Source: Escherichia phage vB_VIPECOTH07. Taken from it: a DNA stretch of 44,205 nucleotides. The notes below the pieces were generated by a model, which worked only from the letters and a program-made list of their open reading frames with translations, was not told the origin of the DNA and searched no databases. The stretch lies in sequence record PQ417132.1, one strand, 5' to 3'. This document shows, piece after piece, positions 1-44,168 of this stretch (its first letter is position 1; each line of letters opens with the position of its first letter). The translations under genes were made by a program, and so were the position numbers.

Positions 1-513
1 TTAACGTTCACCGGACACCACCTTAATTGTTACTTCACTGATTGGCTCGTCGCGTACTTCTTCGGCGACAACTGTTTTATTCAGCCCCAGCTTAGCGGCG
101 GCGAACGTAGCAGAGATACCGGCGGCCCCATTCTCAGTGAAATACGCCTCTTCCAGCGCCTGTGCCGTTTCATAGGCTTCTGCAAATGAGGGAATCTCGC
201 GCAGCCACAGCTTAATAATCGGGATAGTGACACCGATGTGTAAGGCGAAGCGAGCCAGTGATGGCGGTTTATCCGCAATGACTGCTTTGTAGTCTCCGTG
301 CGCACCGGTCGGCATAGCCTCCCACGACGTGCGGTCGAAGAAACGAATCAATTCGTCACAATAGTCCGGGTCCCACAACGCGGCGGAATTACGGGATGAT
401 TGATAAAGGCTCTGTTTACCGCGCGGTCGTTTACGGCGACGGTTTGCGCTAACAGCTTCTTCATGTGCAGCTTGCACCACCTCTGGTGATGGCTGCTTGA
501 GTTTCAGCTTCAT
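1..513 (-). CDS. terminase small subunit (putative)
   Basis: Start moved to ATG at 513 (SD AAGGGG 5 nt upstream). Motif ARFALHIGVTIPIIKLWLREIPSFAEAYETAQALEEAYFTENG resembles small-terminase families. Stop codon is exactly at window positions 1-3, just upstream (in transcription order, across the boundary) of the large terminase. Confidence 0.6.
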   Translation of the reverse strand: MKLKLKQPSPEVVQAAHEEAVSANRRRKRPRGKQSLYQSSRNSAALWDPDYCDELIRFFDRTSWEAMPTGAHGDYKAVIADKPPSLARFALHIGVTIPIIKLWLREIPSFAEAYETAQALEEAYFTENGAAGISATFAAAKLGLNKTVVAEEVRDEPISEVTIKVVSGER

Positions 514-732
514 AGAATCCCCTTGCATATGCGTCTGACCATCAGAGCGCACCAGACGCGCCCTACGCGTCTAAATGGATTATATAAGGGGATTGGGCGG
601 GATGTACAGAAAAGCCCTCGGTAGAGGGCTTGTATCAGTTGTATAGGCCGTGGCGTGGTGCTCTTTTACCGTCGCCGCCGTAATGGTCGTTAGCTACGGG
701 AATGGCCCGGGCGTTAGGGATGATTAGTAGTC

Positions 733-969
733 TCATTCCCCGCTCTCCTCTCGTGCGATACGTTGCTCAGTTTTAGTGATACCCCGGCGCGTGAATAACA
801 CCGGGCTTGTTTTAACGTGCGTCATCAGACGGTTGTTATAAATTACGTGGCGCTCGCAGTTAACGTCTTTGCGGTACTTCGCAATCGTCATTTCGTTGAT
901 GCCGGTTTGTCGACATGTCTCGGCCATCGTGCCAAATTCTTTAATCAGGTTCGGAATGCTGGTAATCAT
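733..969 (-). CDS. small HTH-like DNA-binding protein
   Basis: ATG at 969 overlaps upstream stop (ATGA). Segment FGTMAETCRQTGINEMTIAKYRK looks like a helix-turn-helix. Confidence 0.35.
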   Translation of the reverse strand: MITSIPNLIKEFGTMAETCRQTGINEMTIAKYRKDVNCERHVIYNNRLMTHVKTSPVLFTRRGITKTEQRIAREESGE

Positions 970-1166
970 TCTGGTGCAATCTCCGATACACTAAGAATAA
1001 TCACTTCTGCGCCGTTGGGGAGAGACTTTGCAATGTCCTGTTCAATTTCCCTTAGTGCGTTGTAGGTGAATTTATCACTGTCGATAAGTACTTGTTCAGT
1101 ATTCCCAAACCCCCTACGTCCGGTATTGTCTGCCCAGTTGAAACCAATTAAGAAGTGTTTCGTCAT
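966..1166 (-). CDS. hypothetical protein
   Basis: ORF track 966..1187; ATG at 1166 preceded by GAGGAA. No recognisable motif. Confidence 0.4.
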   Translation of the reverse strand: MTKHFLIGFNWADNTGRRGFGNTEQVLIDSDKFTYNALREIEQDIAKSLPNGAEVIILSVSEIAPE

Positions 1167-1332
1167 AAGAAATTCCTCGTTGTCCACATCGCATTCGGAT
1201 ATTTGTTATCGCGGTCCTGCACCACGGAAATCATGTTCCCGCGTTGCACCAGGCAGAAGTGGCGTTGTTGCTCGCCGTTGTAGCGGCGCCAGATTGCCTC
1301 TTCGATTGCCGCGTTGATGTCACTGAACATTC

Positions 1333-1521
1333 TCACCCCACTATCTCATCACCAAGCCACGCCGTTTCTCGTATATCGTCAACCACACACGCGGCGTGTT
1401 CACGGCTAATTGCAAAAATGTAGAAGCTAAACTTCTTCCCGTCGGCGTCGATATGGTTAACAGAGTATGGTTTCCACAGGACGCCATCGATAACTACTGG
1501 TTCAGGCGCTTTCATACCCAT
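1333..1521 (-). CDS. hypothetical protein
   Basis: ORF track 1333..1524; tandem ATGs at 1521 and 1515. Start uncertain. Confidence 0.35.
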   Translation of the reverse strand: MGMKAPEPVVIDGVLWKPYSVNHIDADGKKFSFYIFAISREHAACVVDDIRETAWLGDEIVG

Positions 1522-1699
1522 CACCCGAGGCTTTGTTAAGGTTGAAGCGGTTAATCAGTTCACGGCGCGTCTCATAAAGAGACTCTACCATTTGCTCGGC
1601 TACAGCGATTTTAGTGTTCAGGATGTGCATCACGTGGCTTACGTCTACGCCGCCGTTAACAGCCTCGACCATCATCTTTTCGTATTCACGGTCAGTCAT
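1502..1699 (-). CDS. hypothetical protein
   Basis: ORF track 1502..1714 (TTG); first ATG at 1699. Start uncertain. Confidence 0.35.
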   Translation of the reverse strand: MTDREYEKMMVEAVNGGVDVSHVMHILNTKIAVAEQMVESLYETRRELINRFNLNKASGDGYESA

Positions 1700-1710
1700 A
1701 TGGTTACGTC

Positions 1711-1908
1711 TCAATTAATCAAATAATAAATATTATCACGGGCTAACTCATCCGCATCATCCTGGCAGTCGATATCGTAGTCGTCGACCCACTCAATCGC
1801 CATTACTCGCGCTAACTGTCGGCGCGTCCGCTTGTTATTCTTTAGGTCTGTAAATATCTTAAGTTCTTTGTCGTACGCACGTACCATCATCTTCATTTTG
1901 CTTTTCAT
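1711..1908 (-). CDS. hypothetical protein
   Basis: ORF track 1711..1923; ATG at 1908 overlaps stop of upstream small ORF (ATGA). Confidence 0.4.
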   Translation of the reverse strand: MKSKMKMMVRAYDKELKIFTDLKNNKRTRRQLARVMAIEWVDDYDIDCQDDADELARDNIYYLIN

Positions 1909-2060
1909 TTCTTCTCTCCCCACATGCGATTTAGATACTTGTTCTTGTCCGGCCCCGGGAAACTGTTACGTTTCATAAGCTCCTCTCGTGTCGGGAACGA
2001 GGTGTGACTGACTTTACGGCCTACTCGTAATGGTTGGCTTACTTGACCTTGTTCGCTCAT
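1905..2060 (-). CDS. hypothetical small protein (~51 aa)
   Basis: Below the 60-aa track cutoff; translated by hand (MSEQGQVSQPLRVGRKVSHTSF...). ATG at 2060 overlaps stop of 2057..2254 and its TGA overlaps the next ATG, a translational-coupling chain. Confidence 0.3.
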   Translation of the reverse strand: MSEQGQVSQPLRVGRKVSHTSFPTREELMKRNSFPGPDKNKYLNRMWGEKK

Positions 2061-2254
2061 TCTACAATCTCCCATTTAACGCCGTGGAAGCCATCACCTT
2101 CATCGTTACCAAAGTCTATGAAAATATAGCAGTCGTCGTCGGAGTCTATATAACCGAAACCAGTAGCTGTCGGGTTGTACACATCGTACACTTTACCCTC
2201 TGTCACATAGTCAAGGGCGGCTAACCAGAGAATTTTAGCGGCTTTAACTTTCAT
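2057..2254 (-). CDS. hypothetical protein
   Basis: ATG at 2254 with SD GGAGAG; ATGA-coupled to neighbours. Confidence 0.45.
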   Translation of the reverse strand: MKVKAAKILWLAALDYVTEGKVYDVYNPTATGFGYIDSDDDCYIFIDFGNDEGDGFHGVKWEIVE

Positions 2255-2460
2255 TTCTTCTCTCCTGCAAACTTAAATTTAGCCTCGAACTCCTTTCTAC
2301 CAACACAATATTCTGAATAGGATTCATTGAATTTCATCAATGGGTAGTCGGCGATAAGTACGTGGTCCAACCCAACCGCAGTTACAATGAAACTAACTTC
2401 ACCTACATCACCCCACGAGTAATTACTCTTATAGATGCCACCAACGATAACGTCGATCAT
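2251..2460 (-). CDS. hypothetical protein
   Basis: ATG at 2460 with SD GGAGAG; overlaps upstream stop. Confidence 0.45.
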   Translation of the reverse strand: MIDVIVGGIYKSNYSWGDVGEVSFIVTAVGLDHVLIADYPLMKFNESYSEYCVGRKEFEAKFKFAGEKK

Positions 2461-2606
2461 TTCTTCTCTCCTGCATAAGCTGCTTTCAGTGTCTGCATCG
2501 CGGCGAACCAGAATGCAGCCGCTGGGATGCTGTTGCTCAGGTTGCTAACGGCGATGCGTGCCATCAGTTGTGCGTCTTTGAATGCTTCGATATCTGTAAT
2601 TTTCAT
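2457..2606 (-). CDS. hypothetical small protein (~49 aa)
   Basis: Hand-translated MKITDIEAFKDAQLMARIAVSNLSNSIPAAAFWFAAMQTLKAAYAGEKK; ATG at 2606 overlaps upstream stop (TAATG), stop overlaps next ATG. Confidence 0.3.
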   Translation of the reverse strand: MKITDIEAFKDAQLMARIAVSNLSNSIPAAAFWFAAMQTLKAAYAGEKK

Positions 2607-2803
2607 TAGTTATTCTCCAGTATTTCTAACGCTTTCACGAGGTAACGTTTACGTAAAACATCAGTCTGCGCGCTATTAGCCCTGCGTATGTAGCCCGCAG
2701 CAGCCCTCATCTGTAGTTTTTCCACCGAACCATTCCCTATAACTGATGCGATACATTTAACTTCGAGTTCTTCGGTTATTTCTATCGTCGATACGTTGCC
2801 CAT
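2606..2803 (-). CDS. hypothetical protein (first gene of operon)
   Basis: ATG at 2803 with SD GGAG; directly downstream of promoter at 2838..2866. Confidence 0.45.
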   Translation of the reverse strand: MGNVSTIEITEELEVKCIASVIGNGSVEKLQMRAAAGYIRRANSAQTDVLRKRYLVKALEILENN

Positions 2804-2837
2804 TTCTCTCTACTCCGTTCTCGTTGTCGATGAAGTA

Positions 2838-2866
2838 AATATAATAGGGTCGAGGATAATAGTCAA
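2838..2866 (-). promoter_or_regulatory. sigma70-like promoter TTGACT-N17-TATATT
   Basis: Minus-strand reading: -35 TTGACT (2866..2861), 17-nt spacer, -10 TATATT (2843..2838); about 35 nt upstream of ATG at 2803. Confidence 0.5.
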
Positions 2867-2888
2867 CTAGTCATTACAGAAAACAGAT

Positions 2889-2920
2889 AAAAAAAATCCC
2901 GGCTGGGTCAGGGCCGGGAT
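2889..2920 (-). terminator. rho-independent terminator
   Basis: Perfect 8-bp inverted repeat ATCCCGGC/GCCGGGAT with 9-nt loop; on minus strand followed by T8 run. Confidence 0.65.
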
Positions 2921-2991
2921 AAAACTGGAGAGCAGAGGGATGGAACAGGAGGTGATTTAAGTATCGTCTGATTAGTCTTAGGTGTCAATTG

Positions 2992-3022
2992 GTAAAATAA
3001 AACCCGGATTCGCGGTCCGGGT
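2992..3022 (-). terminator. rho-independent terminator
   Basis: Hairpin ACCCGGA-ttcgcgg-TCCGGGT followed on minus strand by TTTTATTTT; lies downstream of the endolysin gene. Confidence 0.55.
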
Positions 3023-3150
3023 TTCGGGCATAAGCCCCTGAACCCTACGCAGTCTCCACCGCCTGGGCTGCTGCTTCAGGTTTACCAGGGCTTAGTATGC
3101 AAGCACAAGCAGCGTGATGTAAGTTTACTAAACGCCTTCGTATTCGTCCA

Positions 3151-3636
3151 TCATTTAACAGCCCTCCCGATAGCCTCCGCCTCCTGCCACTGTTTACCGT
3201 CGAACAACGCCAGACGACCCGCAGTACGGCGACGCAGACCAAGTAACGGTTTACCATTCTGGTTGATGAACAGCGCCAGCTTAGTCCGCAGCGTCGTGAT
3301 ATCACCAGAACGCAGCGCCTTACCCGTGCCCGTAGTAGCAGCAATCACGCCAGCGCCCGCGTTATAGACCAGGTCGCAAACAGCATCAAACTGCGCCTGC
3401 GTCAGCGAATGGTGTGCAGCCGCGCCAACCGCAGCTACGGCTTTAGCCATATCACGGTTCAGTAACAGGAGGCCTTGCCCGGGGGTGATAGTCTGCCCCG
3501 CCTTAACATGCGGACCATAGCTTCCGTAGCCAATAGTCAGGTACTTCTCGTTCGGCGTAGCACGATACGCAGTTCCGCGGAATCCCTCAAATGCGGCGGT
3601 AAAATGCAATCCATTATCTGAAATGTTTCGAGACAC
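3151..3636 (-). CDS. endolysin, lysozyme (glycoside hydrolase family 24-like)
   Basis: FEGFRGTAYRATPNEKYLTIGYGSYGPH matches the phage lysozyme catalytic region. Start placed at GTG 3636 preceded by GGAGGA with 7-nt spacer (ORF track 3151..3687). No N-terminal hydrophobic segment. Confidence 0.8.
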   Translation of the reverse strand: MSRNISDNGLHFTAAFEGFRGTAYRATPNEKYLTIGYGSYGPHVKAGQTITPGQGLLLLNRDMAKAVAAVGAAAHHSLTQAQFDAVCDLVYNAGAGVIAATTGTGKALRSGDITTLRTKLALFINQNGKPLLGLRRRTAGRLALFDGKQWQEAEAIGRAVK

Positions 3637-3886
3637 GCTTATGTCCTCCGTATGACAGCCACGCCTGGCGAATCTGGCGCAGCGCAACTAATGTGATTAA
3701 TGTCTCTGGCAACGTGGGTGACATGCTGCCCTGTAACAGGTGGATACATCCAGCGGCGCAGACGATAGCAGTCAGGATATAAAGCACCCGACCAAATAAT
3801 CCGTCGTCCACACTGGGATGGTACACATTAAACAGCGATGTGCCTCCGATTGCCAGCATACCGCCGAACCAGAATAATTCATTCAT
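3614..3886 (-). CDS. small membrane protein in lysis cassette (second holin or antiholin candidate)
   Basis: ATG at 3886 within ATGAATGA overlap with holin stop; hydrophobic segments FWFGGMLAIGGTSLF and VLYILTAIVCAAGCIHLL. 3' end overlaps endolysin start by 23 nt. Confidence 0.5.
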   Translation of the reverse strand: MNELFWFGGMLAIGGTSLFNVYHPSVDDGLFGRVLYILTAIVCAAGCIHLLQGSMSPTLPETLITLVALRQIRQAWLSYGGHKRVSKHFR

Positions 3887-4187
3887 CTGGGCCTCCTCGA
3901 CGTGAGATGTATTCTCCGGCGACGATACCGGAGAGACGGGAATAAATAGGCATCCAGAGAATAGCAATAATGAAGCCCAACCCAGCGATTTCACGGTCGC
4001 CCGTGATACCGAACCATTGAGCTGCGAGAGGTGCGCCAAATACGGCGCAGGCGAAACCAGTAGCGATGAAGCAGAAGCCGTCGATAGGGCCAGAAATAGC
4101 GGACTTATGTTGTCGTAGTCCGATTACCCCTCCGGCTAGTGCGGCAGCGAGAAGCCACCCCGTCACTGTTTCAGTAAATTTATCCAA
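3879..4187 (-). CDS. holin (three predicted transmembrane segments)
   Basis: TTG start at 4187 preceded by GGAGGA 6 nt upstream; hydrophobic stretches TGWLLAAALAGGVIGL, FCFIATGFACAVFGAPLAAQWF, IAGLGFIIAILWMPIY; immediately upstream of endolysin. Confidence 0.65.
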   Translation of the reverse strand: MDKFTETVTGWLLAAALAGGVIGLRQHKSAISGPIDGFCFIATGFACAVFGAPLAAQWFGITGDREIAGLGFIIAILWMPIYSRLSGIVAGEYISRRGGPDE

Positions 4188-4262
4188 GATGAATCCTCCA
4201 GGTGCGTATTAAGTATGCAGTAACTGGAGGATACCACGGGTAGGAATTATCCTAATAACGGT

Positions 4263-4556
4263 TTATTTATGACGCCAGATGTATTGGCGCCTCTGCGGCT
4301 TCGTCGGAATATCATCGTACCCCAGCGATTTCCAGTAATTAAATAACCGATTAGCGATTGCTGCGCGTTCCTGTGTTTTAAACTCACCGAGGTTCACGGC
4401 CTTCCCGTTCTGGAATCCGCAGGCGCGGACCGCTTTGCGTCTGGCCTGAATCTCAGGGTACAGCGCATTACGGCGGCGCTTGTATATTCGTGTGTTTGCT
4501 CTCGGTGACAGCGGCGCAAGGCCGCTTCGTTTCAGGATGTCAGTTGCTAACGACAT
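4263..4556 (-). CDS. small protein with AP2-like segment (putative DNA-binding)
   Basis: ATG at 4556 overlaps upstream stop (ATGA). NGKAVNLGEFKTQERAAIANRLF resembles the AP2 DNA-binding fold; weak call. Confidence 0.35.
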   Translation of the reverse strand: MSLATDILKRSGLAPLSPRANTRIYKRRRNALYPEIQARRKAVRACGFQNGKAVNLGEFKTQERAAIANRLFNYWKSLGYDDIPTKPQRRQYIWRHK

Positions 4557-4819
4557 CACTCCACCCCCTCCACATGTGTAACTGACCCACAGTTCGCGCA
4601 CTCGACGTAATCAGGGAACTGGTCTTTGTATTTCTGTAACTCGGCTTCCGCTTTTTCTGCCCACGCTAAAAAGTCGAAAGCGGCATTGAGCATCTGCGTA
4701 CGCCATGTCCTGAGTTCATTGAACTTACGCTCAAGTTCCGCGTAGTCTTCGTAACCAACCCAGTCACCATCGTCGTGCGGCCCTATTAAACCGCCTTGTA
4801 ATAAATATCTCTGTACCAT
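4556..4819 (-). CDS. hypothetical protein (C-terminal CANCGS Cys pair)
   Basis: ORF track 4556..4825; ATG at 4819 with AGGAG 8 nt upstream. Confidence 0.45.
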   Translation of the reverse strand: MVQRYLLQGGLIGPHDDGDWVGYEDYAELERKFNELRTWRTQMLNAAFDFLAWAEKAEAELQKYKDQFPDYVECANCGSVTHVEGVE

Positions 4820-4821
4820 AA

Positions 4822-5040
4822 TCACTTCTCCTGTTTACCAAGTCGCTTAGGTGAGCAGATAGCGCGTACCTCTGAATCGTTAGGCTTGTCGCCCTGAAAC
4901 AAGAAGTGCGCGTTCTCTGCAGCGCGTGCCGCTGACTGGCACGCCTCCATCGAGTAAAACGTTTCTGATGCCGCTAGTTGCATCTGGCCCGCCGACAATA
5001 CCCAGATAAATAAGATGCTGGTCATTTCTTTAACCCACAT
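4822..5040 (-). CDS. small protein with signal-peptide-like N-terminus
   Basis: ATG at 5040; MTSILFIWVLSAGQMQLAASE resembles a Sec signal peptide; Cys residues in the mature part. Confidence 0.4.
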   Translation of the reverse strand: MWVKEMTSILFIWVLSAGQMQLAASETFYSMEACQSAARAAENAHFLFQGDKPNDSEVRAICSPKRLGKQEK

Positions 5041-5297
5041 TTAATGCACATACATGGAAACCCGACTCCGTAAAATTGCCATTCGTGTTCACGCTGTTTC
5101 TCCTTCCACCGTACCCACATCCGCTGAACCTCTGGTTCAGCGTAGCCATTGTCTTTCCGGGCCGGGGTGAACCCAAACCGGCTCCGGAACCATAATTCAA
5201 ACTGCTGCAAAGTGAGTCTCACTTCCTGGTAACTTGAAGCCGTTGTCGGTCCGCGCCACGTTCCACTCAATCCCACCGTGGTACACAACCATGTCAT
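5022..5297 (-). CDS. hypothetical protein (start uncertain)
   Basis: Track ORF overlaps 5197..5382 by ~100 nt; true start probably internal. Confidence 0.25.
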   Translation of the reverse strand: MTWLCTTVGLSGTWRGPTTASSYQEVRLTLQQFELWFRSRFGFTPARKDNGYAEPEVQRMWVRWKEKQREHEWQFYGVGFPCMCIKCGLKK

Positions 5298-5382
5298 CTA
5301 AATCCAGGTCTATAACGGTTCCTACTTTGAAGATGCCTTTAGTCAGTTCACTGTCTCTTTTTGTAACTTTAACTTCTAACAT
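5197..5382 (-). CDS. hypothetical protein
   Basis: ATG at 5382 with SD GAGGAA 6 nt upstream; directly downstream of promoter 5415..5443. Confidence 0.45.
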   Translation of the reverse strand: MLEVKVTKRDSELTKGIFKVGTVIDLDLDDMVVYHGGIEWNVARTDNGFKLPGSETHFAAV

Positions 5383-5414
5383 TTCGTTTTCCTCTGTCTC
5401 GTCTGTGTAAATGA

Positions 5415-5443
5415 ATAGTAGCCTATTCTATCTTAGTGTGCAA
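5415..5443 (-). promoter_or_regulatory. promoter TTGCAC-N17-TACTAT with dyad AATAG-N4-CTATT
   Basis: Minus-strand reading CTTGCACACTAAGATAGAATAGGCTACTATTCATTTA; dyad overlaps -10. Confidence 0.5.
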
Positions 5444-5450
5444 GTAAATT

Positions 5451-5621
5451 TTATTGGTGTTTTAAAGATAATCGTTCGCCACGAATCCAGTAGTACCTCG
5501 GGCGTCTGGCCCACTGGCACCAGCGCATAACACGGTACTTGTTGCCGTCTGACGCAACAATAAGTCCGAATCGCTTTTCTCCGTTTCTACCGGTCCAGGT
5601 TACGATGTCATTCAGTTTCAT
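5451..5621 (-). CDS. hypothetical small protein (~56 aa)
   Basis: Hand-translated MKLNDIVTWTGRNGEKRFGLIVASDGNKYRVMRW...; ATG at 5621 with AGGAG 8 nt upstream. Confidence 0.3.
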   Translation of the reverse strand: MKLNDIVTWTGRNGEKRFGLIVASDGNKYRVMRWCQWARRPRYYWIRGERLSLKHQ

Positions 5622-5755
5622 TGTTGCGTCTCCTGCAATAGTCGCTTCGATTGTTGCGTTTGGTGAAAGTGTCGCCTTTTGACGACACTAAGTTAAAGTT
5701 GTACGCTGCTGTGTAGCAGCGTAAGTCACTCAGTAAAATCCCAAACTATTGAACA

Positions 5756-5956
5756 TCACACTTCCGGCGGCTCAGGTAACGGCATCCAGTGAGTCACGTA
5801 CTTATCGTAGTGATTCCAGAAAGGCTTTCTCCCGTCATCAGGAACGATGTAATAATCGTGTTGAACTGCGTTATTTAACGTTTCATACACCAGGAATTCT
5901 TTATCTGTACTACCGTTGCCCGGCAGCATCTCACTACACTTAATCCACTCACCCAT
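5756..5956 (-). CDS. DUF551-like phage protein
   Basis: MGEWIKCSEMLPGNG... pattern (W-I-x-C/V-x-E-x-LP) recalls the DUF551 family; ATG at 5956. Confidence 0.4.
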   Translation of the reverse strand: MGEWIKCSEMLPGNGSTDKEFLVYETLNNAVQHDYYIVPDDGRKPFWNHYDKYVTHWMPLPEPPEV

Positions 5957-5962
5957 ATCTCA

Positions 5963-6103
5963 CCTCGTATTCATCGCAGTTTGAACACCAGCTTTCCACG
6001 CCCGCCACGCGAGACGTGTCTTAACGTTCAGGTACTCTTTCTTTGAACCCTTGTTAACCGGCAGACCCTCGACGATGGCCCACCGTTCGAATGCTTCTCT
6101 CAT
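5963..6103 (-). CDS. hypothetical small protein (~46 aa)
   Basis: Hand-translated MREAFERWAIVEGLPVNKGSKKEYLNVKTRLAWRAWKAG...; ATG at 6103 overlaps upstream stop. Confidence 0.25.
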
Positions 6104-6294
6104 AACTCAACCCCGTGGTGCTTAAGAAAACTGTTTAACTTGTACTCACGGTACTGTGCTACCTCCTTAGCATGAGCCAAATGCCACGACTTCAACGGGG
6201 TGTACTTCGCCTTTTCCCAGCATTCAACACCAAACTCGGCGGCGCGCAGACCGCCAATCAGACGCTCAAGGCGGAATTGGTTATACGGACTCAT
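6100..6294 (-). CDS. hypothetical protein
   Basis: ORF track 6100..6309; ATG at 6294 with GAGG upstream. Confidence 0.4.
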   Translation of the reverse strand: MSPYNQFRLERLIGGLRAAEFGVECWEKAKYTPLKSWHLAHAKEVAQYREYKLNSFLKHHGVEL

Positions 6295-6446
6295 ACCAGA
6301 ACCTCGCATTCATCCCGATACACGAACAATAACGACCCTTTGTACTCAATCATAAAACCATAATGGTTGCTGCTGAACGCCAGAAAAACATCACCTACCG
6401 AGATACCGAAATCTATAAGCCTGCGGTCAGTTATACGGATTCTCAT
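6291..6446 (-). CDS. hypothetical small protein (~51 aa)
   Basis: Hand-translated MRIRITDRRLIDFGISVGDVFLAFSSNHYGFMIEYKG...; ATG at 6446 with GGGAGG upstream; ATGA-coupled both sides. Confidence 0.3.
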   Translation of the reverse strand: MRIRITDRRLIDFGISVGDVFLAFSSNHYGFMIEYKGSLLFVYRDECEVLV

Positions 6447-6691
6447 TAACGGCAACCTCCCTCAGAGTCGTCGGCACGAGCATCATGATTCGATGCCGTT
6501 TTGATTATATTTTTCAGGCAACTTTTGCACGGCATAATTCTCCCTCCCTGCTCCATAACTAACAGGGCGTGCTGTGCGTCCTGAAACAACCAATCACTAA
6601 ATTGAGGCTTACAGCCGCACCATGTTTCTATATCATGTTTGGCGAGTTTAACCCCATCGCGATAGTCGTATTTAATTATATGATTAAACAT
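6446..6691 (-). CDS. hypothetical Cys-rich protein
   Basis: ATG at 6691 (SD AAGGGG); Cys pairs WCGCK and PCKSC suggest a small zinc-binding fold. Confidence 0.4.
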   Translation of the reverse strand: MFNHIIKYDYRDGVKLAKHDIETWCGCKPQFSDWLFQDAQHALLVMEQGGRIMPCKSCLKNIIKTASNHDARADDSEGGCR

Positions 6692-6876
6692 CACTTCGCC
6701 CCTTTGAATTTAAAATTGTTGCCGATGAGTGTTAAATTATCTCTGAAAGCGTAACCATGTTTCTTTCGTACAAGACCCCATACGTCTACAGCGGTACTAT
6801 ATTCATCCTCATTCTGGGTAACTATTACGTACTGTCCGCCGCGTTTTGTTTTAACCAACTGACCCTTCTTAAACAT
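6691..6876 (-). CDS. hypothetical protein (first gene of leftward operon)
   Basis: ORF track 6691..6903 (TTG); ATG at 6876 with GAGGAG 8 nt upstream, directly downstream of promoter 6911..6939. Confidence 0.4.
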   Translation of the reverse strand: MFKKGQLVKTKRGGQYVIVTQNEDEYSTAVDVWGLVRKKHGYAFRDNLTLIGNNFKFKGAK

Positions 6877-6910
6877 AACCATCACTCCTCTGTCTAGTTT
6901 CAATAAGTGA

Positions 6911-6939
6911 ATAGTAACCTATTATGTTGGGGTGTGCAA
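6911..6939 (-). promoter_or_regulatory. promoter TTGCAC-N17-TACTAT with dyad AATAG-N4-CTATT
   Basis: Minus-strand reading CTTGCACACCCCAACATAATAGGTTACTATTCACTTA; near-identical to copies at 5415..5443 and 30307..30335. Confidence 0.55.
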
Positions 6940-7322
6940 GAGATTCATTGAAAATGGTTACGTTGCCGTTGTGATTCTTCAGGTAGGGTTGTGCCTTTAT
7001 TCTTATTACTTGGTAACTAAAGGGCAGGCCCTAAGCCTGCCCAATAATCGTTACATTTTTACGGTTGCGAATCTACGGCACTTTAAGAAAATCAGATACT
7101 TAAGATATATTCCGCCGATGGGAATAGAGCTTGCCCAGGGCAACCGGAGATACTTAGGAAGGAAAGTTACGATAATTCGAATGTTCAGTAAACTGCCGCC
7201 TAACACTTCGCGTTGGGCGCTCGTTTTCGGCGGGTTTTACAAGGTGAACAGGAATCAAAGTAACTAAGATATAGAAGCACCTTAAACGAAGATTTTCTTA
7301 ATGTCAATAGGTGCGATTATGT

Positions 7323-7351
7323 TTGATTTCCCATTATTCGCAATGTATACT
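7323..7351 (+). promoter_or_regulatory. sigma70-like promoter TTGATT-N17-TATACT
   Basis: -35 TTGATT 7323..7328, 17-nt spacer, -10 TATACT 7346..7351; ~30 nt upstream of ATG 7384. Confidence 0.5.
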
Positions 7352-7383: not shown

Positions 7384-7554
7384 ATGACGCAGAATGAGGT
7401 AGCTGAGCGTATCGGGGTTACTCGTCGCACGCTGAATAACTGGTTAAAGAGTGGGAAGTTCCCGGATTGTTGTATCCGTATTATGGGCCGCCGGCAGCCG
7501 GGTACTTTCGACCCGGAGAAAGTGGAAGCGTGGATTAAGGAGAATGTAAAATGA
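7384..7554 (+). CDS. AlpA/Xis-like HTH transcriptional regulator
   Basis: ATG at 7384 (SD GGGGG); MTQNEVAERIGVTRRTLNNWLKSGKFP is a typical AlpA-type HTH. Confidence 0.55.
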   Translation: MTQNEVAERIGVTRRTLNNWLKSGKFPDCCIRIMGRRQPGTFDPEKVEAWIKENVK

Positions 7555-7784
7555 CCGAGTTCCAGTCCCGCGTATTTACGGCAGTCGTTTCATTAACCTG
7601 TAAAAAAGGGTCGTGCAGCGTTATGGACTTGCGCCGTAGTTATTTTAGGTACTATAGTTCCGCCATTATTGAAGGGTCGTTGAAGGTACTGGTTAAATCT
7701 GGTGTCGTGAAAAATGTTGGCGGGAAATATAGTGCTGTTGCCGAAGTTCGCGGAATGACCGCTACTTTAGAAGACCTGGAATAA
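7551..7784 (+). CDS. hypothetical protein with C-terminal LEDLE tail
   Basis: ATGA-coupled to upstream gene; ends ...TATLEDLE. Confidence 0.45.
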   Translation: MTEFQSRVFTAVVSLTCKKGSCSVMDLRRSYFRYYSSAIIEGSLKVLVKSGVVKNVGGKYSAVAEVRGMTATLEDLE

Positions 7785-7842
7785 AAGAAAGCCCCGACGC
7801 GGTGAACGCCGAGGCTAAATTACTTGCTGAAGGAAATATAAC

Positions 7843-10083
7843 ATGTCCGATGTAATTTTATCCTACTCGTGGTCTCGTCGCAACGCGCGGGCCGAGAAAA
7901 AGGATATAAACGTCAGAACCACACACACGGCAACGCTGGGCGACCTGAAAGATTTAATCCAGCCGCTTGATGCTGTCCGTGACGGAATTAACCCGAAGAC
8001 CGCACCCGGTTATATCACCGCCGCGTGCGACTCCACACACAGCACCGTAAAAGACCCGGAAACCGGTGACTTTAAGCAAGCGCGTAAAGGCTTCTTCTAT
8101 CGCTGTGATGCGTCTGTAAGCAAATCGTCGCTGGCGTATCTTGACTTCGATAGCGCAACACCGGAAGAGTATCGGGAAGCGGTGCGCCTGGTTAAGCGCA
8201 GCCGCCAGGCGATGTGTCTCTACACCACGGCATCACATACCGACGAGTCGCCGCGCTTTCGCGTCGTCATGCCGCTGGCCCGCCCGGTTGAAGGTGGCGG
8301 CATCATCCGTGTTCGCCATGGATTACTGGAGCACTTCTTCAAAGGCATGGGCGCGGACCGCAGCGGGTTCACTCTGTCGCAGCCGATGTACCTGCCGCCA
8401 GTTGGCTCTACTGTTATCTGGTCGCGCCGCAACGACCTGATTGACCCTGATGAGTTACTGGAAGGCGCCCCAGCCGTTGACATCAGCAGCGCATCTGATT
8501 ACCAGATACCGGAAGAACTGCGCACCGCGTTTACAGATGCGTTTGAAGCACTGGCATTCGAGTACGGCGGCATCATGACGCCGCGTGGCCTTAAGATGCC
8601 AGCTACGCCAGAACACGCAGAAAACTACAGCGACCCGACCCCGCGCCCGGACGACTTCCTGCTGTGCTTCCCGCGCGAGGGATATGAAGCGCCGAACGTA
8701 ACGATGATTCACGACACCGACATCACGGCAACCGAAGGCATGTCGCCGAAAGAGGTGTGGAAATACGCGTGTGATGCGACCGGGCTGCCGTTCAGTGAAG
8801 TCGCCGAGGCTATCGGATGGGGTGCGCGTGAATCTGTTTCATGCAGCCTCGACGACCTGGAAGACGATGATGACTCAGAAGAGGACGAGCTACCGGAACC
8901 GGTAAAGGCTGATTTCGTCGTTGAGGGGTACATGCCGTCAGATTGTATCTGGGATATTGTTGGGGAATCCGGCACGTACAAATCGTTCTATACGCTGGGG
9001 ATGATGTACCTGAGCGCCGCCGGGTACAGGTTTGCGGGGGCGGATACCCAGCGTTGCCACCATTTCTATATTGATGGTGAGGGTGGCGCAGCTACACGCA
9101 CCCGTATTGATGCACTAGCGGCTAAATATGGCGGGGAAGGTAAAGATTATGTACACGTCATCGATATGGGCGAAGTCGGCAAACTTAAAAGCCTGATTAA
9201 GTTAATGCGCGAAACTGCTGGCGACGAGCCAATTGGCATGGTTGCGTTCGACACCCTTAACCAGACCCTGGCACTGACGATTGATAAGTTCGACGAGAAC
9301 AGTTCATCAACAGCAATCGGCATGGGTAAAGTTATCGCCATTCTGAAAGAAGTACGCGATGCAACTAAAGCCGCAGTAGGCGTTGTCCACCATACGCCGA
9401 AGGGTGGAAAGAAAGCACGCGGCAGTGGGGCGCTGTATGCGGGTGTTGACGTGGAACTGACAATCGAACGTGCAACCGACCGTCAGATAAACGTATATCA
9501 CTCGAAATTCAAGCACGGGCCTCAGCAGAAGACGGTTGGCATGGTGCTGGAGTCGGTACAGTTCCGTGAAGCGCCGCCGCCTAAAGAATACCGAGCGGTT
9601 GAGTTCCTGGGTAGCACAGAGGAATACGGCACAATCGTAAACCTCGATCTGCCTGAGCCGCACAAGGCGCTTGTGCTGATGCCGTGGGGCTTCGAGCCGT
9701 TCAAAACTGACGAGGAGAAAGAGCGGGAAGAAGGGTTGACGAAAGAAGGTAAGCAAAAAGTAAAGGAAGAAGTTAAACGCGGCAGGGATGAAGTAAGGAA
9801 GGAGTCAATACTTTCGGCACTGGAAGACCTGCAACAGTCAGATGACACAGGTCGCGGTTTTACTCAGCAGCAGATAGTGGCTCGTTCCGGTGACTTCTCT
9901 GTGACTAACACCCATCTTGATAAAATGTTGAAAGATGGAGAACTAATGCTTGGTTGCGATGCTAACGGCGAAGTAGTACCGAGAACATATCGTATACCCG
10001 AAAGAATAGGTGATAGATTAAGGCCGAAGACACTATACGAACCAAATGAGATGCTGGTGGTGACAGAGGAGGATTTGGAATAG
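7843..10083 (+). CDS. primase-helicase (AEP-like primase N-domain fused to RecA/DnaB-like ATPase)
   Basis: N-terminal LAYLDFD and TTASHTDESPRFRVVMPL resemble archaeo-eukaryotic primase motifs; C-terminal Walker A GESGTYKS and VVHHTPKGGKKARGSGALYAGVDVELTIER resemble RepA/DnaB-type helicases. Internal acidic stretch LDDLEDDDDSEEDE; ends ...TEEDLE. Confidence 0.7.
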   Translation: MSDVILSYSWSRRNARAEKKDINVRTTHTATLGDLKDLIQPLDAVRDGINPKTAPGYITAACDSTHSTVKDPETGDFKQARKGFFYRCDASVSKSSLAYLDFDSATPEEYREAVRLVKRSRQAMCLYTTASHTDESPRFRVVMPLARPVEGGGIIRVRHGLLEHFFKGMGADRSGFTLSQPMYLPPVGSTVIWSRRNDLIDPDELLEGAPAVDISSASDYQIPEELRTAFTDAFEALAFEYGGIMTPRGLKMPATPEHAENYSDPTPRPDDFLLCFPREGYEAPNVTMIHDTDITATEGMSPKEVWKYACDATGLPFSEVAEAIGWGARESVSCSLDDLEDDDDSEEDELPEPVKADFVVEGYMPSDCIWDIVGESGTYKSFYTLGMMYLSAAGYRFAGADTQRCHHFYIDGEGGAATRTRIDALAAKYGGEGKDYVHVIDMGEVGKLKSLIKLMRETAGDEPIGMVAFDTLNQTLALTIDKFDENSSSTAIGMGKVIAILKEVRDATKAAVGVVHHTPKGGKKARGSGALYAGVDVELTIERATDRQINVYHSKFKHGPQQKTVGMVLESVQFREAPPPKEYRAVEFLGSTEEYGTIVNLDLPEPHKALVLMPWGFEPFKTDEEKEREEGLTKEGKQKVKEEVKRGRDEVRKESILSALEDLQQSDDTGRGFTQQQIVARSGDFSVTNTHLDKMLKDGELMLGCDANGEVVPRTYRIPERIGDRLRPKTLYEPNEMLVVTEEDLE

Positions 10084-30306: not shown

Positions 30307-30335
30307 TTGCACACCCCAACATAATAGGATACTAT
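30307..30335 (+). promoter_or_regulatory. promoter TTGCAC-N17-TACTAT with dyad AATAG-N4-CTATT
   Basis: ACTTGCACACCCCAACATAATAGGATACTATTCACTTA; near-identical to the minus-strand copies at 5415 and 6911; SD AGGAG then ATG 30377. Confidence 0.6.
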
Positions 30336-30376: not shown

Positions 30377-30568
30377 ATGACAGGTATTACTATGTTCTTC
30401 TTAATCATTATCGTTTTAGTTTATTTTATCCCATTTCTCGTGGCGCATATGCGCAACCATAAAGCTAAATTAGCGATATTCATGGCTAATCTGTTTCTCG
30501 GTTGGGTTCTGCTGCCGTGGGTATTTATTTTAATCTGGGCGTGCAACTCGAATGTCAAAGAGAAGTGA
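30377..30568 (+). CDS. small two-TM membrane protein, superinfection-immunity (Imm)-like
   Basis: IPFLVAHMRNHKAKLAIFMANLFLGWVLLPWVFILIWAC matches the Imm-like consensus pattern from memory; two hydrophobic helices. Confidence 0.45.
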   Translation: MTGITMFFLIIIVLVYFIPFLVAHMRNHKAKLAIFMANLFLGWVLLPWVFILIWACNSNVKEK

Positions 30569-42944: not shown

Positions 42945-44168
42945 TTAAAGTGCGAAAGTCACCGGGACGTTAATAACTGGTTTGCGAATCGGCATTTCAT
43001 ACGCGATAGGGTATGTGGTTCCATCATTCTGGTGGTCAACACCACCTGATTTATCCGGTTCGCCGTTCTTGTCGTAGGCTTGCTGCTCCAGGCATCGAGC
43101 AGTAACCGGGCAAGCCTGTTCGTTAATCATGACCATACCAGATTCAAGCGCCTTATTCATCGCAGATACGCGGTCTTTAACCGGTGGGTTTGTCGATTTA
43201 GCGCGTACTTCGAAACCGGCCTGCTGTAGCTGGGCGATGTCGGAGGTGCTGGCGTTGTTGCTTTTACGGTTCTTGCCGCTGGCGTCCGGGTACATAACGA
43301 TATAATGGCCCTTACTTTTCCAGCGCTCCGTTATGGCTCGCACTACATCCGGCGTATCGAACATATCAACCAACTCGGCGACAGCGTGCCACACCTTTCC
43401 GCGTTGCACGTAGACTGTGCTCGCCATATGGCCTACGTTAAAATCCTGCCCAATATACAGAGTCTCACCAGGCTTGATTGTTTCGCGACTGCTGTTTTTC
43501 CTGCGGTCGTAAGCGTAGTAGACCGTCCCAGCCGTGAGGTTTACGAACTCGCCGTTGATGTAGGCATCAATCAACTGCCCGGGGTAGGTATCTCGTAAGG
43601 ACTGCACATAATCTTCTGGCAGGAACGGGTTAGACAGGGTGGACGCCTGAATCATCTCGTAACCAGGATTCTTTTTAACAACCCAGCGGTCATGCACGAA
43701 ACGGAATCCTTCCGGCGTAGTGAACACGGAAACGGTATTAGCAGGTTTTGGCGTAATAGGTTTATACGTCCTCGGCAACTGACGGTTACGGGCGATGACT
43801 TTGTTCCATGCGTGCTCCGCGTGTTCCATGTTCAGGGTATCCAACTCGTCGATTTTTGCACGAAATGACTCGTAACCAACGATTCGTGCTGGATTATCTA
43901 ATGTACGCAGGACAAAATCCCCAAATTGACCGGATGACGTATAGATTATGTTGTCGGACTTATTGTATTTGTACCGGATACCCCAGTCCGTCAGCTTCTC
44001 TTCCATACGGGGCGCAAGGATAAGGCGTACCAGGTCATAAGTAGGCTCATACATGGCGATGATAGAATCGCTGCCACCCTCCATGCTGTCCAGTAGCGCG
44101 GAGTTACACATAACCTCTGATTTCCCGGTGCCGAAGCCAGCCACGAACGCAGGGAACTTGCAATGCAT
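42945..44168 (-). CDS. terminase large subunit (N-terminus may extend past window end)
   Basis: Walker A FVAGFGTGKS near N-terminus; nuclease-domain acidic motifs (YIGQDFN, VMYPDASG). Reading frame stays open upstream of ATG 44168 to the window edge. Confidence 0.85.
   Translation of the reverse strand: MHCKFPAFVAGFGTGKSEVMCNSALLDSMEGGSDSIIAMYEPTYDLVRLILAPRMEEKLTDWGIRYKYNKSDNIIYTSSGQFGDFVLRTLDNPARIVGYESFRAKIDELDTLNMEHAEHAWNKVIARNRQLPRTYKPITPKPANTVSVFTTPEGFRFVHDRWVVKKNPGYEMIQASTLSNPFLPEDYVQSLRDTYPGQLIDAYINGEFVNLTAGTVYYAYDRRKNSSRETIKPGETLYIGQDFNVGHMASTVYVQRGKVWHAVAELVDMFDTPDVVRAITERWKSKGHYIVMYPDASGKNRKSNNASTSDIAQLQQAGFEVRAKSTNPPVKDRVSAMNKALESGMVMINEQACPVTARCLEQQAYDKNGEPDKSGGVDHQNDGTTYPIAYEMPIRKPVINVPVTFAL

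Follow-up and report, generated by a model that had tools for sequence, protein, structure and literature searches.

The 44,205-nucleotide (nt) sequence of Escherichia phage vB_VIPECOTH07 (PQ417132.1), hereafter the window, represents the whole genome, circularly permuted, of a Kagunavirus (Guernseyvirinae), a virulent, K1G-like siphovirus that infects E. coli. It carries two leftward arrays of very small genes, array A and array B, on either side of its lysis cassette. These arrays are very probably ordinary accessory small-gene operons of a K1G-like siphovirus. They appear to be headed by promoters and translationally coupled, their products are presumably non-structural, and they are built from a conserved backbone and from slots that hold a single open reading frame (ORF) each.

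Layout and coding status of the arrays

The gene model comprises 23 solid small genes (33-97 amino acids, aa) and one doubtful ORF, all on the minus strand and flanking a holin-holin-endolysin cassette. Array A (6876..4263) holds 11 solid genes and the doubtful ORF, and array B (2803..635) holds 12 genes. An original prediction, made from the sequence alone, had placed two arrays of tiny genes here. Both were recovered where it had put them, with an ORF coverage far beyond chance when compared to shuffled sequences; its lower bound of 733 omits a 33-aa gene at 635..736. On the minus strand, ORFs of 45 aa or more occupy 92% of 4263..6876 and 95% of 635..2803, compared to a mean of 48% and a maximum of 79% in the shuffles, and plus-strand ORFs cover only 39% and 56% of the same two stretches. 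The leftward chain from 6876 to 635 is nearly gap-free, the lysis cassette being its sole interruption, and the GC skew is negative across 1001..7000 with a change of sign at about 7000.

As predicted, stop/start overlaps are the usual join: 15 of the 22 internal junctions overlap by 1 or 4 nt (TGATG, TAATG, ATGA or GTGA). The other seven comprise three gaps of 2-11 nt, two overlaps of 14 and 20 nt and two true intergenic gaps of 134 and 68 nt, both in array A. A Shine-Dalgarno (SD) core of at least 4 nt, located 6-11 nt from the start codon, was found for 18 of the 23 genes. The statement that each gene has an SD was slightly overstated, because A5, A10, B7, B8 and B9 lack one; these genes mostly overlap the gene upstream. 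Within the proposed units, most start codons overlap the preceding stop and the SD usually lies within the upstream gene, an arrangement that makes translational coupling possible.

A PHROG or Pfam family match was obtained for 19 of the 24 ORFs. The ratio of non-synonymous to synonymous substitution rates (dN/dS) is 0.04-0.55 in 18 ORFs, values comparable to those of the holins (0.10-0.12) and the endolysin (0.15). The seven genes shorter than 60 aa (51, 47, 56, 49, 51, 55-57 and 33 aa), which had been found by hand translation, all have PHROG matches (E 3e-14 to 4e-40), are each annotated in at least one close relative and show dN/dS of 0.05-0.28. Being conserved and under purifying selection, all seven indicate that hand-read phage micro-ORFs can be trusted. 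Relatives lacking such genes would have spoken against the prediction; for the arrays overall, the relatives have them.

The genes of array A, in the order of transcription, are listed below.

6691..6876 (-), A1, 61 aa, backbone; SD AGGAG at 8 nt; phrog_12538, E 1e-28; dN/dS 0.26
6446..6691 (-), A2, 81 aa, Cys-rich; TGATG overlap with A1; phrog_4090, E 9e-39; dN/dS 0.55
6291..6446 (-), A3, 51 aa, variable cassette; TAATG overlap; SD GGAGG; phrog_30395, E 4e-40
6100..6294 (-), A4, 64 aa; ATGA overlap; dN/dS 0.28; annotated in the relatives XY1 and BUCT825
5960..6103 (-), A5, 47 aa, backbone; ATGA overlap; no clear SD; phrog_15836, E 1e-34; dN/dS 0.19
5756..5956 (-), A6, 66 aa, DUF551 protein, Pfam PF04448; dN/dS 0.04
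5451..5621 (-), A7, 56 aa; SD AGGAG; phrog_9384, E 3e-15; dN/dS 0.12
5197..5382 (-), A8, 61 aa, Gp54 family (phage antiviral trigger), Pfam PF25180
5022..5210 (-), A9, doubtful ORF; 62 aa from TTG 5210 or 32 aa from ATG 5120
4822..5025 (-), A10, 67 aa, backbone, hydrophobic N-terminus; phrog_3766, E 5e-36; dN/dS 0.12
4556..4819 (-), A11, 87 aa, acidic, backbone; SD AGGAG; phrog_29624, E 2e-25, on the C-terminal third; dN/dS 0.43
4263..4556 (-), A12, 97 aa, very basic, backbone; phrog_9632, E 4e-56; dN/dS 0.12

Several of these products had been singled out in the original prediction. The DUF551-like protein is A6, which matches PF04448 over its full length (E 4.9e-12, 47 bits against a gathering cut-off of 22). 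Of the two Cys-rich proteins, A2 stands, with five Cys residues including CxC and CxxC motifs; the second, at 5022..5210, corresponds to A9 and is probably a recombination remnant, as detailed below. The secreted-type protein assigned to 4822..5040 is a genuine gene, A10, which starts at ATG 5025 and not at 5040: every homologue begins with MTSILFIWV, and the PHROG alignment to the 72-aa reading sets in only at its residue 6. The hydrophobic N-terminus of A10 and both its Cys residues are kept even in phage Jersey (63% identical), and A10 is possibly an exported or membrane protein. The "AP2-like" label given to A12 was not supported. No Pfam AP2 match was found for A12 at E<=5, and none appeared when its family profile was compared to PDB sequences. 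A12 contains 22 Lys and Arg residues against 6 Asp and Glu. Its AlphaFold2 model, with a mean predicted local distance difference test score (pLDDT) of 68, consists of a beta-hairpin of two strands and a long helix. The fold gave no significant support for an AP2 assignment either: the best Foldseek match to this model has E 0.3, and AP2 domains occur just among the insignificant matches (those of AtERF1, E 1.0, 31% identity over 49 columns, of TEM1 and of PfSIP2). A11 carries a CxxC motif at its C-terminal side; its reading as a Lar-like restriction alleviation protein was rejected, the Pfam match being not significant (E 0.12). For A4, neither a PHROG nor a Pfam match was found. A 134-nt gap with two hairpins lies directly upstream of A7.

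The genes of array B follow; counts out of 22 refer to a census of 22 distinct arrays located between the conserved leader and the small terminase subunit gene terS.

2606..2803 (-), B1, 65 aa, variable first cassette; SD GGAG; 100% identical in BUCT825, XY1 and SZH-1
2457..2606 (-), B2, 49 aa, universal backbone; phrog_2180, E 2e-25; 22/22 arrays; dN/dS 0.12
2251..2460 (-), B3, 69 aa, variable cassette; phrog_20019, E 5e-37; 3/22 arrays
2057..2254 (-), B4, 65 aa, acidic; 8/22 arrays; dN/dS 0.28; no family match
1905..2060 (-), B5, 51 aa, DUF2737/NinZ-like, universal backbone; Pfam PF10930; dN/dS 0.18
1711..1908 (-), B6, 65 aa, single-gene insertion; phrog_8758, E 6e-19; same slot occupied in genome L026
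1502..1699 (-), B7, 65 aa, universal backbone; phrog_1402, E 5e-23; 22/22 arrays; dN/dS 0.21
1333..1521 (-), B8, 62 aa; phrog_10509, E 4e-35; dN/dS 0.06; no SD; 20-nt overlap with B7
1163..1336 (-), B9, 55-57 aa; phrog_5407, E 9e-26; dN/dS 0.05; GTGA overlap
966..1166 (-), B10, 66 aa, single-gene insertion; absent from 10 relatives; same slot occupied in genome L036
733..969 (-), B11, 78 aa, NinH-like helix-turn-helix, universal backbone; phrog_268, E 2e-30; dN/dS 0.15
635..736 (-), B12, 33 aa; SD AGGAG; ATGA overlap; phrog_32259, E 3e-14; 11/22 arrays; dN/dS 0.27

B5 matches PF10930 with E 7.5e-9 and 35.8 bits (gathering cut-off 25). The gene was found in 507 phage records; in SETP3 and SS5 it carries the label "NinZ-like", and lambdoid phages give weak matches. 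RefSeq names for its orthologues are DUF2737 or NinZ-like. B7 is called "Nin protein" in the XY1 and BUCT825 annotations. B11 reaches E 2e-4 and 21.6 bits against Pfam NinH (PF06322), below the cut-off of 29.8, which leaves it NinH-like and outside the family proper; it has no NCBIfam match at E<=0.1, and its orthologues in Golestan and Jersey are named "NinH family protein" in RefSeq. No family match was found for B1 or for B10, whose homologues are 81-95% identical, several of them on contigs of about 44 kb, and B6 gave no tblastn match in 10 relatives. Ten of the array proteins were also searched against NCBIfam and nothing was found.

Several points weigh against the view of the arrays as accessory operons made of functional genes. 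A9 is probably a recombination remnant and not a functional gene, as judged from its sequence: it has a poor start context, shows 0 synonymous against 4 non-synonymous changes, is overlapped by a rival ORF in a different frame spanning 5030..5200, has no Pfam or PHROG family match and contains a recombination breakpoint. Its C-terminus (EHEW...CMCIKCG) matches the final Cys motif in the larger, variable genes of 108-212 aa found at the same position in relatives. B3 is intact and shows dN/dS of about 1.0 (6 synonymous, 25 non-synonymous changes), so that selection is not evident, and A8, A9 and B1 offer no informative substitutions. Twenty of the 24 proteins have no informative family. Translational coupling is deduced from gene geometry, and promoter and terminator function from consensus and conservation; a generic promoter scan was not enriched (11 sites found against 10.5 expected from shuffles). 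The K1B4 transcriptome (PMC12645636), the sole one for Kagunavirus, annotates 57 genes and does not resolve these ORFs. The CM001 engineering paper holds no essentiality data covering array genes.

In other Kagunaviruses the position equivalent to 5022..5297 holds a length-variable gene of 108-212 aa with a conserved N-terminus (KNEVFEYLIDQLRQQ) and at least one repeat of a zinc-ribbon-like motif, CEHDW...CxxCG. It lies at 5048..5500 in L003, 4440..4985 in L004, 4096..4509 in L005, 5456..6094 in L006 and 2098..2424 in L009. The window, XY1 and BUCT825 retain just a C-terminal remnant of it.

Predicted transcription units

The sites on which the predicted transcription units of the arrays are based are as follows.

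6911..6939 (-), promoter-like P_A1, TTGCAC-N17-TACTAT, heads array A; exact motif copy
5415..5443 (-), internal promoter-like P_A8, TTGCAC-N17-TACTAT, directly upstream of A8; exact motif copy
2838..2866 (-), promoter P2, TTGACT-17-TATATT, heads array B; 10/12 matches in the promoter scan
631..612 (-), hairpin followed by TTTCTGT, between array B and terS
608..579 (-), promoter-like TGTACA-18-TATAAT, between array B and terS

The motif TTGCAC-N17-TACTAT occurs in three exact copies in the window, compared to 0.23 expected. Two of them belong to array A, and the P_A8 region is 81% identical over 93 columns to the region upstream of A1. Eight of 9 distinct Kagunavirus relatives have both array A copies and SZH-1 has only one; the P_A8 site was found in all of the Kagunavirus relatives, even in those without A8. 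Array A had been described as one leftward operon. Its genes are indeed packed leftward, but the conserved internal promoter-like site at 5443..5415 would split the array into two units, the second continuing into the lysis genes. The third copy is at 30307..30335 (+), before a gene for a 63-aa hydrophobic protein (30377..30568) and an exonuclease operon. That operon is embedded among structural genes, and the three copies, with their extended surrounding similarity, look like one promoter class of the phage.

The promoter proposed at 2838..2866, directly after the endolysin terminators, was detected by the scan and hardly varies among 34 distinct sequences of Kagunavirus and Jerseyvirus, and the record of Salmonella phage Jersey (NC_021777) lists the homologous site as a promoter. 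Between P2 and the first gene, the leader shows no variation within Kagunavirus or in phage Jersey; in the wider set of viral contigs its invariance is by construction, the leader having served as the search pattern. Array B had also been thought to run into the terminase genes. This was not supported: B12 and terS are separated by 121 nt that contain the hairpin at 631..612 and the promoter-like site at 608..579.

Taken together, these sites suggest the following organization. P_A1 (6939..6911) would drive A1-A7. P_A8 (5443..5415) would drive A8-A12 and then the two holin genes and the endolysin gene, this unit ending at two intrinsic terminators. P2 (2866..2838) would drive B1-B12 as far as the hairpin at 631..612, and the terminase genes would be served by the separate promoter-like site.

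Conserved backbone and single-gene slots

The census of array B revealed 6-13 ORFs per array and 44 families, of which four are universal (B2, B5, B7 and B11) and 18 are singletons. Ten distinct A arrays contained 36 families, with the backbone order A1...A5-A6...[promoter]...A10-A11-A12. The A1 family is present in 8 of the 10. A12, the most widespread array A family, is present in 9 of the 10; its identity is 94-99% across Kagunavirus, and the Jersey homologue is 50% identical over 45% of its length. A5 is found at 91-100% identity in 9 of 9 distinct Kagunavirus relatives and is missing from phage Jersey. A3 is patchy among relatives (dN/dS 0.28, few substitutions), and at least nine different first genes follow the same array B leader in other genomes.

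Alignments with relatives showed that B6 and B10 were each inserted precisely as one gene, the breakpoints coinciding with the stop/start overlap; the B10 insertion runs exactly from ATGA to ATGA. Each recurs in the identical slot in one other genome. A 15-nt junction made of SD, stop and start, GGAGAGAAGAAATGA, is present in three exact copies in array B (2471..2457, 2265..2251 and 1919..1905, minus strand) against 0.04 expected, and the three proteins that end there share the C-terminus GEKK. The B6 insertion brings its own copy of this junction, and relatives differ in sequence at that edge. The copy at the upstream edge of 1711..1908 may mark a hot spot of cassette exchange or be a trace left by it.

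The comparison shows that the backbone comprises A1, A5, A6, A10, A11 and A12 in array A and B2, B5, B7 and B11 in array B, conserved in order across the genus and, for some, in Jerseyvirus as well. In the slots, single ORFs are gained, lost or replaced, exactly at a stop/start junction. The backbone would encode small DNA-binding or uncharacterised proteins of the nin-region type (the NinH-like helix-turn-helix protein, the NinZ-like DUF2737 protein, the basic 97-aa protein and the protein with a signal-like N-terminus), and the variable cassettes would be host-interaction cargo, a small beta protein of the Gp54 family among them.

Very small, non-structural genes with fast turnover, clustered between conserved modules, are familiar from the hyperplastic regions of T4 and the class I early genes of T7. 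In contrast to those regions, about half of the genes of the present arrays form an order-conserved backbone, and exchange proceeds one ORF at a time at stop/start overlaps. With the lambdoid nin region (lambda ninA-ninH, P22 ninX/Y/Z) the arrays share small mosaic genes with overlapping stops and starts. The NinZ-like B5 and the NinH-like B11 thus give array B family links to that region. Its position differs: lambda nin lies between the replication genes and Q in the early rightward operon, whereas array B occupies the endolysin-terminase interval of a virulent phage and is headed by a promoter of its own. Q, NinB, NinG and the other larger nin genes were not encountered.

The backbone/cassette map concerns a genus that is used as a chassis for synthetic biology and therapy (CM001, BASEL Bas70-76), and it points engineers to the places where payloads or deletions stand the best chance of being accepted.

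A Gp54-family protein in array A

A8 occupies the first slot downstream of the internal promoter. It matches PF25180 with E 4.6e-26 and 90.8 bits (cut-off 27), residues 2-61 aligning to profile positions 5-65 of 65, and a phmmer search against PDB retrieved Gp54 of phage Bas11 (9AXB) with E 1.2e-10 and about 50% identity. The AlphaFold2 model of A8 is of low confidence (pLDDT 63) and all-beta, with six strands, to be compared to the small six-stranded beta-barrel of the family fold; in a Foldseek search with this low-confidence model the top three matches were Bas11 Gp54 (9AXB, 9ERV), with E 0.11-0.19 and a template modelling score of about 0.35. The two proteins are alike in being small (61 and 66 aa) and, as far as the low-confidence model of A8 goes, all-beta, and in having a promoter directly upstream of the gene.

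Bas11 Gp54 is a dispensable 66-aa protein whose native function is unknown and which binds and activates the toxin-antitoxin defence protein CapRelSJ46; its discoverers speculate that it may inhibit another defence system (PMC11578894). Residues A7, G24, I25, S39 and L41 are reported to matter for activation, and A7V alone or I25V alone abolishes it; closer Gp54 homologues (Bas10, Bas5, Bas8 and SECphi27) do not trigger CapRelSJ46 (PMC11578894). In the alignment to 9AXB, A8 retains G24 and differs at the other four positions (A7 to V, I25 to T, S39 to G, L41 to I). Because activation-critical positions differ and closer homologues do not trigger, A8 is probably not a CapRelSJ46 trigger.

The Gp54 family was found in 214 phage records, in 207 of them below 60% identity to A8; among the matches below 60% listed, the phages are of about 46-53 kb, include phage Tls and were read as T1-like. 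The version present in the window (at least 95% identity) occurs in 4 of the 214 records, all of them Kagunavirus: BUCT825, XY1 twice and JSSK01. The family is thus otherwise mainly one of T1-like phages of about 50 kb, and this distribution suggests that A8 was acquired horizontally by one Kagunavirus sublineage. A Gp54-family gene in a Kagunavirus widens the host range of phages that CapRel-type immunity could sense.

Alternative functions of the array genes

The original prediction favoured a role in host takeover or anti-defence. This is a generic expectation, which for the variable cassettes is plausible, though unproven. That the arrays as a whole are dedicated islands of this kind, most of whose members inhibit host functions or immunity, appears rather unlikely. 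Their small genes, the high turnover of many members, the location next to the divergent early control region (6904..7350) and the presence of A8, whose family includes the CapRelSJ46 trigger and its speculated inhibitor role towards another defence, would all fit. However, about half of the genes belong to a backbone whose order is conserved and which is subject to purifying selection throughout the genus and, in part, in other genera, so that regulatory or housekeeping roles fit these better than arms-race cargo. The backbone looks more like a set of nin-type regulatory or DNA-binding functions, linked through synteny to lysis and packaging. In addition, the nin-type genes of array B (NinH-like, NinZ-like) are in lambda DNA-binding or of unknown function and not anti-defence, and BASEL phenotypes of Kagunavirus isolates are reported to include high sensitivity to restriction-modification and a variable one to Old (PMC11990801). 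Scans of Pfam, PHROGs and NCBIfam, which are general libraries and none of them dedicated to anti-defence, revealed no known anti-defence family.

A different role for the backbone genes, namely to regulate or assist late functions (lysis timing, late transcription or DNA packaging) tied to the neighbouring lysis and terminase genes, is conceivable but doubtful. A10-A12 are always located directly upstream of the holins, in Jerseyvirus as well, and B11 and B12 lie directly upstream of terS, a position kept in Jerseyvirus. The very basic A12 and the signal-like N-terminus of A10 would suit such functions, as would the likeness of B11 to lambda NinH, which one report describes as a Fis-like DNA-binding, DNA-bending protein (PMC7166090). 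The TTG start and sequestered SD of the first holin, described below, also suggest regulated expression. On the other hand, the Pfam, PHROG and NCBIfam scans gave no homology to known antiholins, spanins, Q-type antiterminators or terminase accessory proteins, the Jersey spanins are annotated elsewhere, and synteny alone is no proof of function.

Finally, it is highly improbable that the region is largely non-coding or regulatory and that many of its micro-ORFs arose by chance or through faulty annotation: the competing frames, poor start, 0 against 4 changes and remnant look of A9, the dN/dS of B3 near 1 and the missing family matches of A4, B1, B4 and B10 point that way, but single-strand coverage of 92-95% against at most 79% in shuffles, family matches for 19 of 24 ORFs, dN/dS well under 1 in 18 ORFs including all seven below 60 aa, insertions and deletions that keep ORF boundaries exactly, and the intactness in relatives of the ORFs that match no family all argue against it.

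The lysis cassette and the region downstream of the endolysin

The elements located between the two arrays are listed below.

4193..4232 (-), holin-leader hairpin, perfect 9-bp inverted repeat; its 3' arm CTGGAGGAT includes the holin SD
3151..4187 (-), lysis cassette: holin 3879..4187, holin 3614..3886, endolysin 3151..3636
2992..3024 (-), intrinsic terminator 1; stem 3024..3000 (9 bp), AAACCCGGA / TCCGGGTTT, then TATTTTA
2960..2988 (-), promoter-like P1, TTGACA-17-GATACT; 10/12 matches in the promoter scan
2888..2953 (-), candidate short transcript of about 65 nt; C/U-rich 5' part CACCUCCUG...CAUCCCUCUGCUCUCC followed by terminator 2
2920..2896 (-), stem (8 bp) of intrinsic terminator 2, then T8; read from sequence and conserved across genera

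The holin genes match phrog_2359 and phrog_2508, and the endolysin matches Pfam Phage_lysozyme (E 2.5e-25). The first holin gene starts with TTG at 4187 and its SD is sequestered by the leader hairpin (minimum free energy -23.8 kcal/mol, z -3.0). All 80 nt of this leader are identical in 7 Kagunavirus sequences, including those with a different gene upstream. The TTG start and the sequestered SD suggest translational control of lysis timing. An ORF at 3045..3344, overlapping the 3' end of the endolysin gene, was considered as a spanin and rejected: it lacks a signal sequence, and the Rz-like spanins annotated in Jersey are located elsewhere. In that phage (L011) the Rz-like spanin pair lies at 7501..7996, in the head-gene region and distant from the holin/endolysin cassette, which explains why no spanin is found beside the lysis genes of the window.

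The endolysin terminators invoked in the original prediction were recognized as two G+C-rich hairpins with U-runs located after the endolysin stop at 3151. Both were read from the sequence, the automatic scan having missed them. Terminator 1 is limited to a subset of phages (the window, XY1, BUCT825, Golestan and K1G). The hexamers and 17-nt spacing of P1 are kept in the 34 distinct Kagunavirus and Jerseyvirus sequences, in one of them with an unrelated spacer. The first 35 nt or so of the candidate RNA downstream of P1 are unstructured and C/U-rich, UCACCUCCUGUUCCAUCCCUCUGCUCUCC, and contain the anti-SD-like CACCUCCU; its C/U cores and hairpin are kept across the two genera in the same 34 sequences, the terminator 2 hairpin showing one covarying pair (CG to UA) and one GU, and its fold has a z of -2.8. 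Of the side observations, this module, which joins a promoter, a C/U-rich RNA and a terminator, stands out as the most interesting. It is flagged here as a conserved candidate regulatory RNA, and the masked holin ribosome-binding site is flagged along with it.

A search of the whole window against Rfam found no family at gathering score. In a 381-nt search the candidate RNA reached 25 bits against 50 (E 0.005) with RF02278, the Betaproteobacteria toxic small RNA, which is below threshold, and the resemblance is confined to the C/U-rich stretch and the terminator. Among phage-encoded targets, the best non-self duplex (-33.6 kcal/mol) falls within the range of shuffled seeds (-29 to -37), so that no phage target stands out. 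A reading of the P1-terminator unit as a counterpart of lambda PR'-6S-tR' with Q antitermination was set aside as a weak alternative only: no Q-like protein was found, the initially transcribed sequence differs between genera, and a second promoter follows the terminator.

A joint reading of these elements is speculative and on balance improbable. It takes the P1 unit as a phage small RNA that gates the switch between the lysis-proximal operon and the operon of array B and packaging, and the arrays as a platform for cassette exchange. The CACCUCCU segment of the RNA may then bind purine-rich ribosome-binding sites, either on host mRNAs or on phage array and late mRNAs, and the repeated SD-stop-start junction GGAGAGAAGAAATGA may aid the swapping of single ORFs.

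Relationship to other phages and to existing annotation

The terminase genes frame the window as follows.

1..513 (-), small terminase subunit gene terS; phrog_3064 terminase, E 1e-71
42945..44168 (-), terL, which is reached from terS across the window ends

Position 1 of the window is the end of the terS stop codon and the terL start lies 37 nt beyond it, across the ends, which indicates a full genome linearised inside the packaging operon. The array region matches 413 phage records, chiefly Escherichia Kagunavirus and Salmonella Jerseyvirus, and the remaining genome behaves in the same way in this comparison. The closest records, BUCT825 and vB_EcoS_XY1, are 95.9% identical to the array region over 91-93% of its length.

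XY1 (NC_073325), BUCT825 (PV040721) and Jersey (NC_021777) share with the window the order regulators, divergent region, small genes, holin, holin, endolysin, and then promoter, small genes (DUF2737 and NinH-like) and terminase. In the records of relatives most array ORFs are already listed as hypothetical proteins and, in Jersey, the promoter is annotated. The arrays, most of their ORFs and the post-endolysin promoter were therefore already known from public annotations of close and distant relatives. The feature is ordinary and already known as a kind of operon in K1G-like phages. The practical value of the present description is modest, and what it adds is incremental: the backbone/cassette map, two extra cassettes, the Gp54-family assignment with its non-triggering prediction, and the internal promoter class.

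The two extra single-gene cassettes, 1711..1908 and 966..1166, are found only in the window when it is compared to 10 relatives. Conversely, the HNH-endonuclease and "HslV-like" insertions of BUCT825, Bas73 and SZH-1 are missing from it. In BUCT825 an "endonuclease" ORF is located between holin and lysozyme, and in BUCT825, Bas73 and SZH-1 an ORF of 146 aa, also absent from the window, lies between the A12 orthologue and the holin. The latter is variously labelled protease, HslV-family peptidase or ATP-dependent protease, and these labels look like over-annotation. The insertions are at 4083..4430 and 5227..5667 in L001, 3302..3742 in L004 and 4028..4465 in L008.

The divergent region of 450 nt (6904..7350) lies between array A and the rightward helix-turn-helix and replication genes. 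It contains a strong minus-strand hairpin with a T-tail (7042..7022), several weak promoter-like sites and a plus-strand ORF of 111 aa (6932..7267) of doubtful coding quality; small plus-strand ORFs are annotated here in Bas72 and Bas73.

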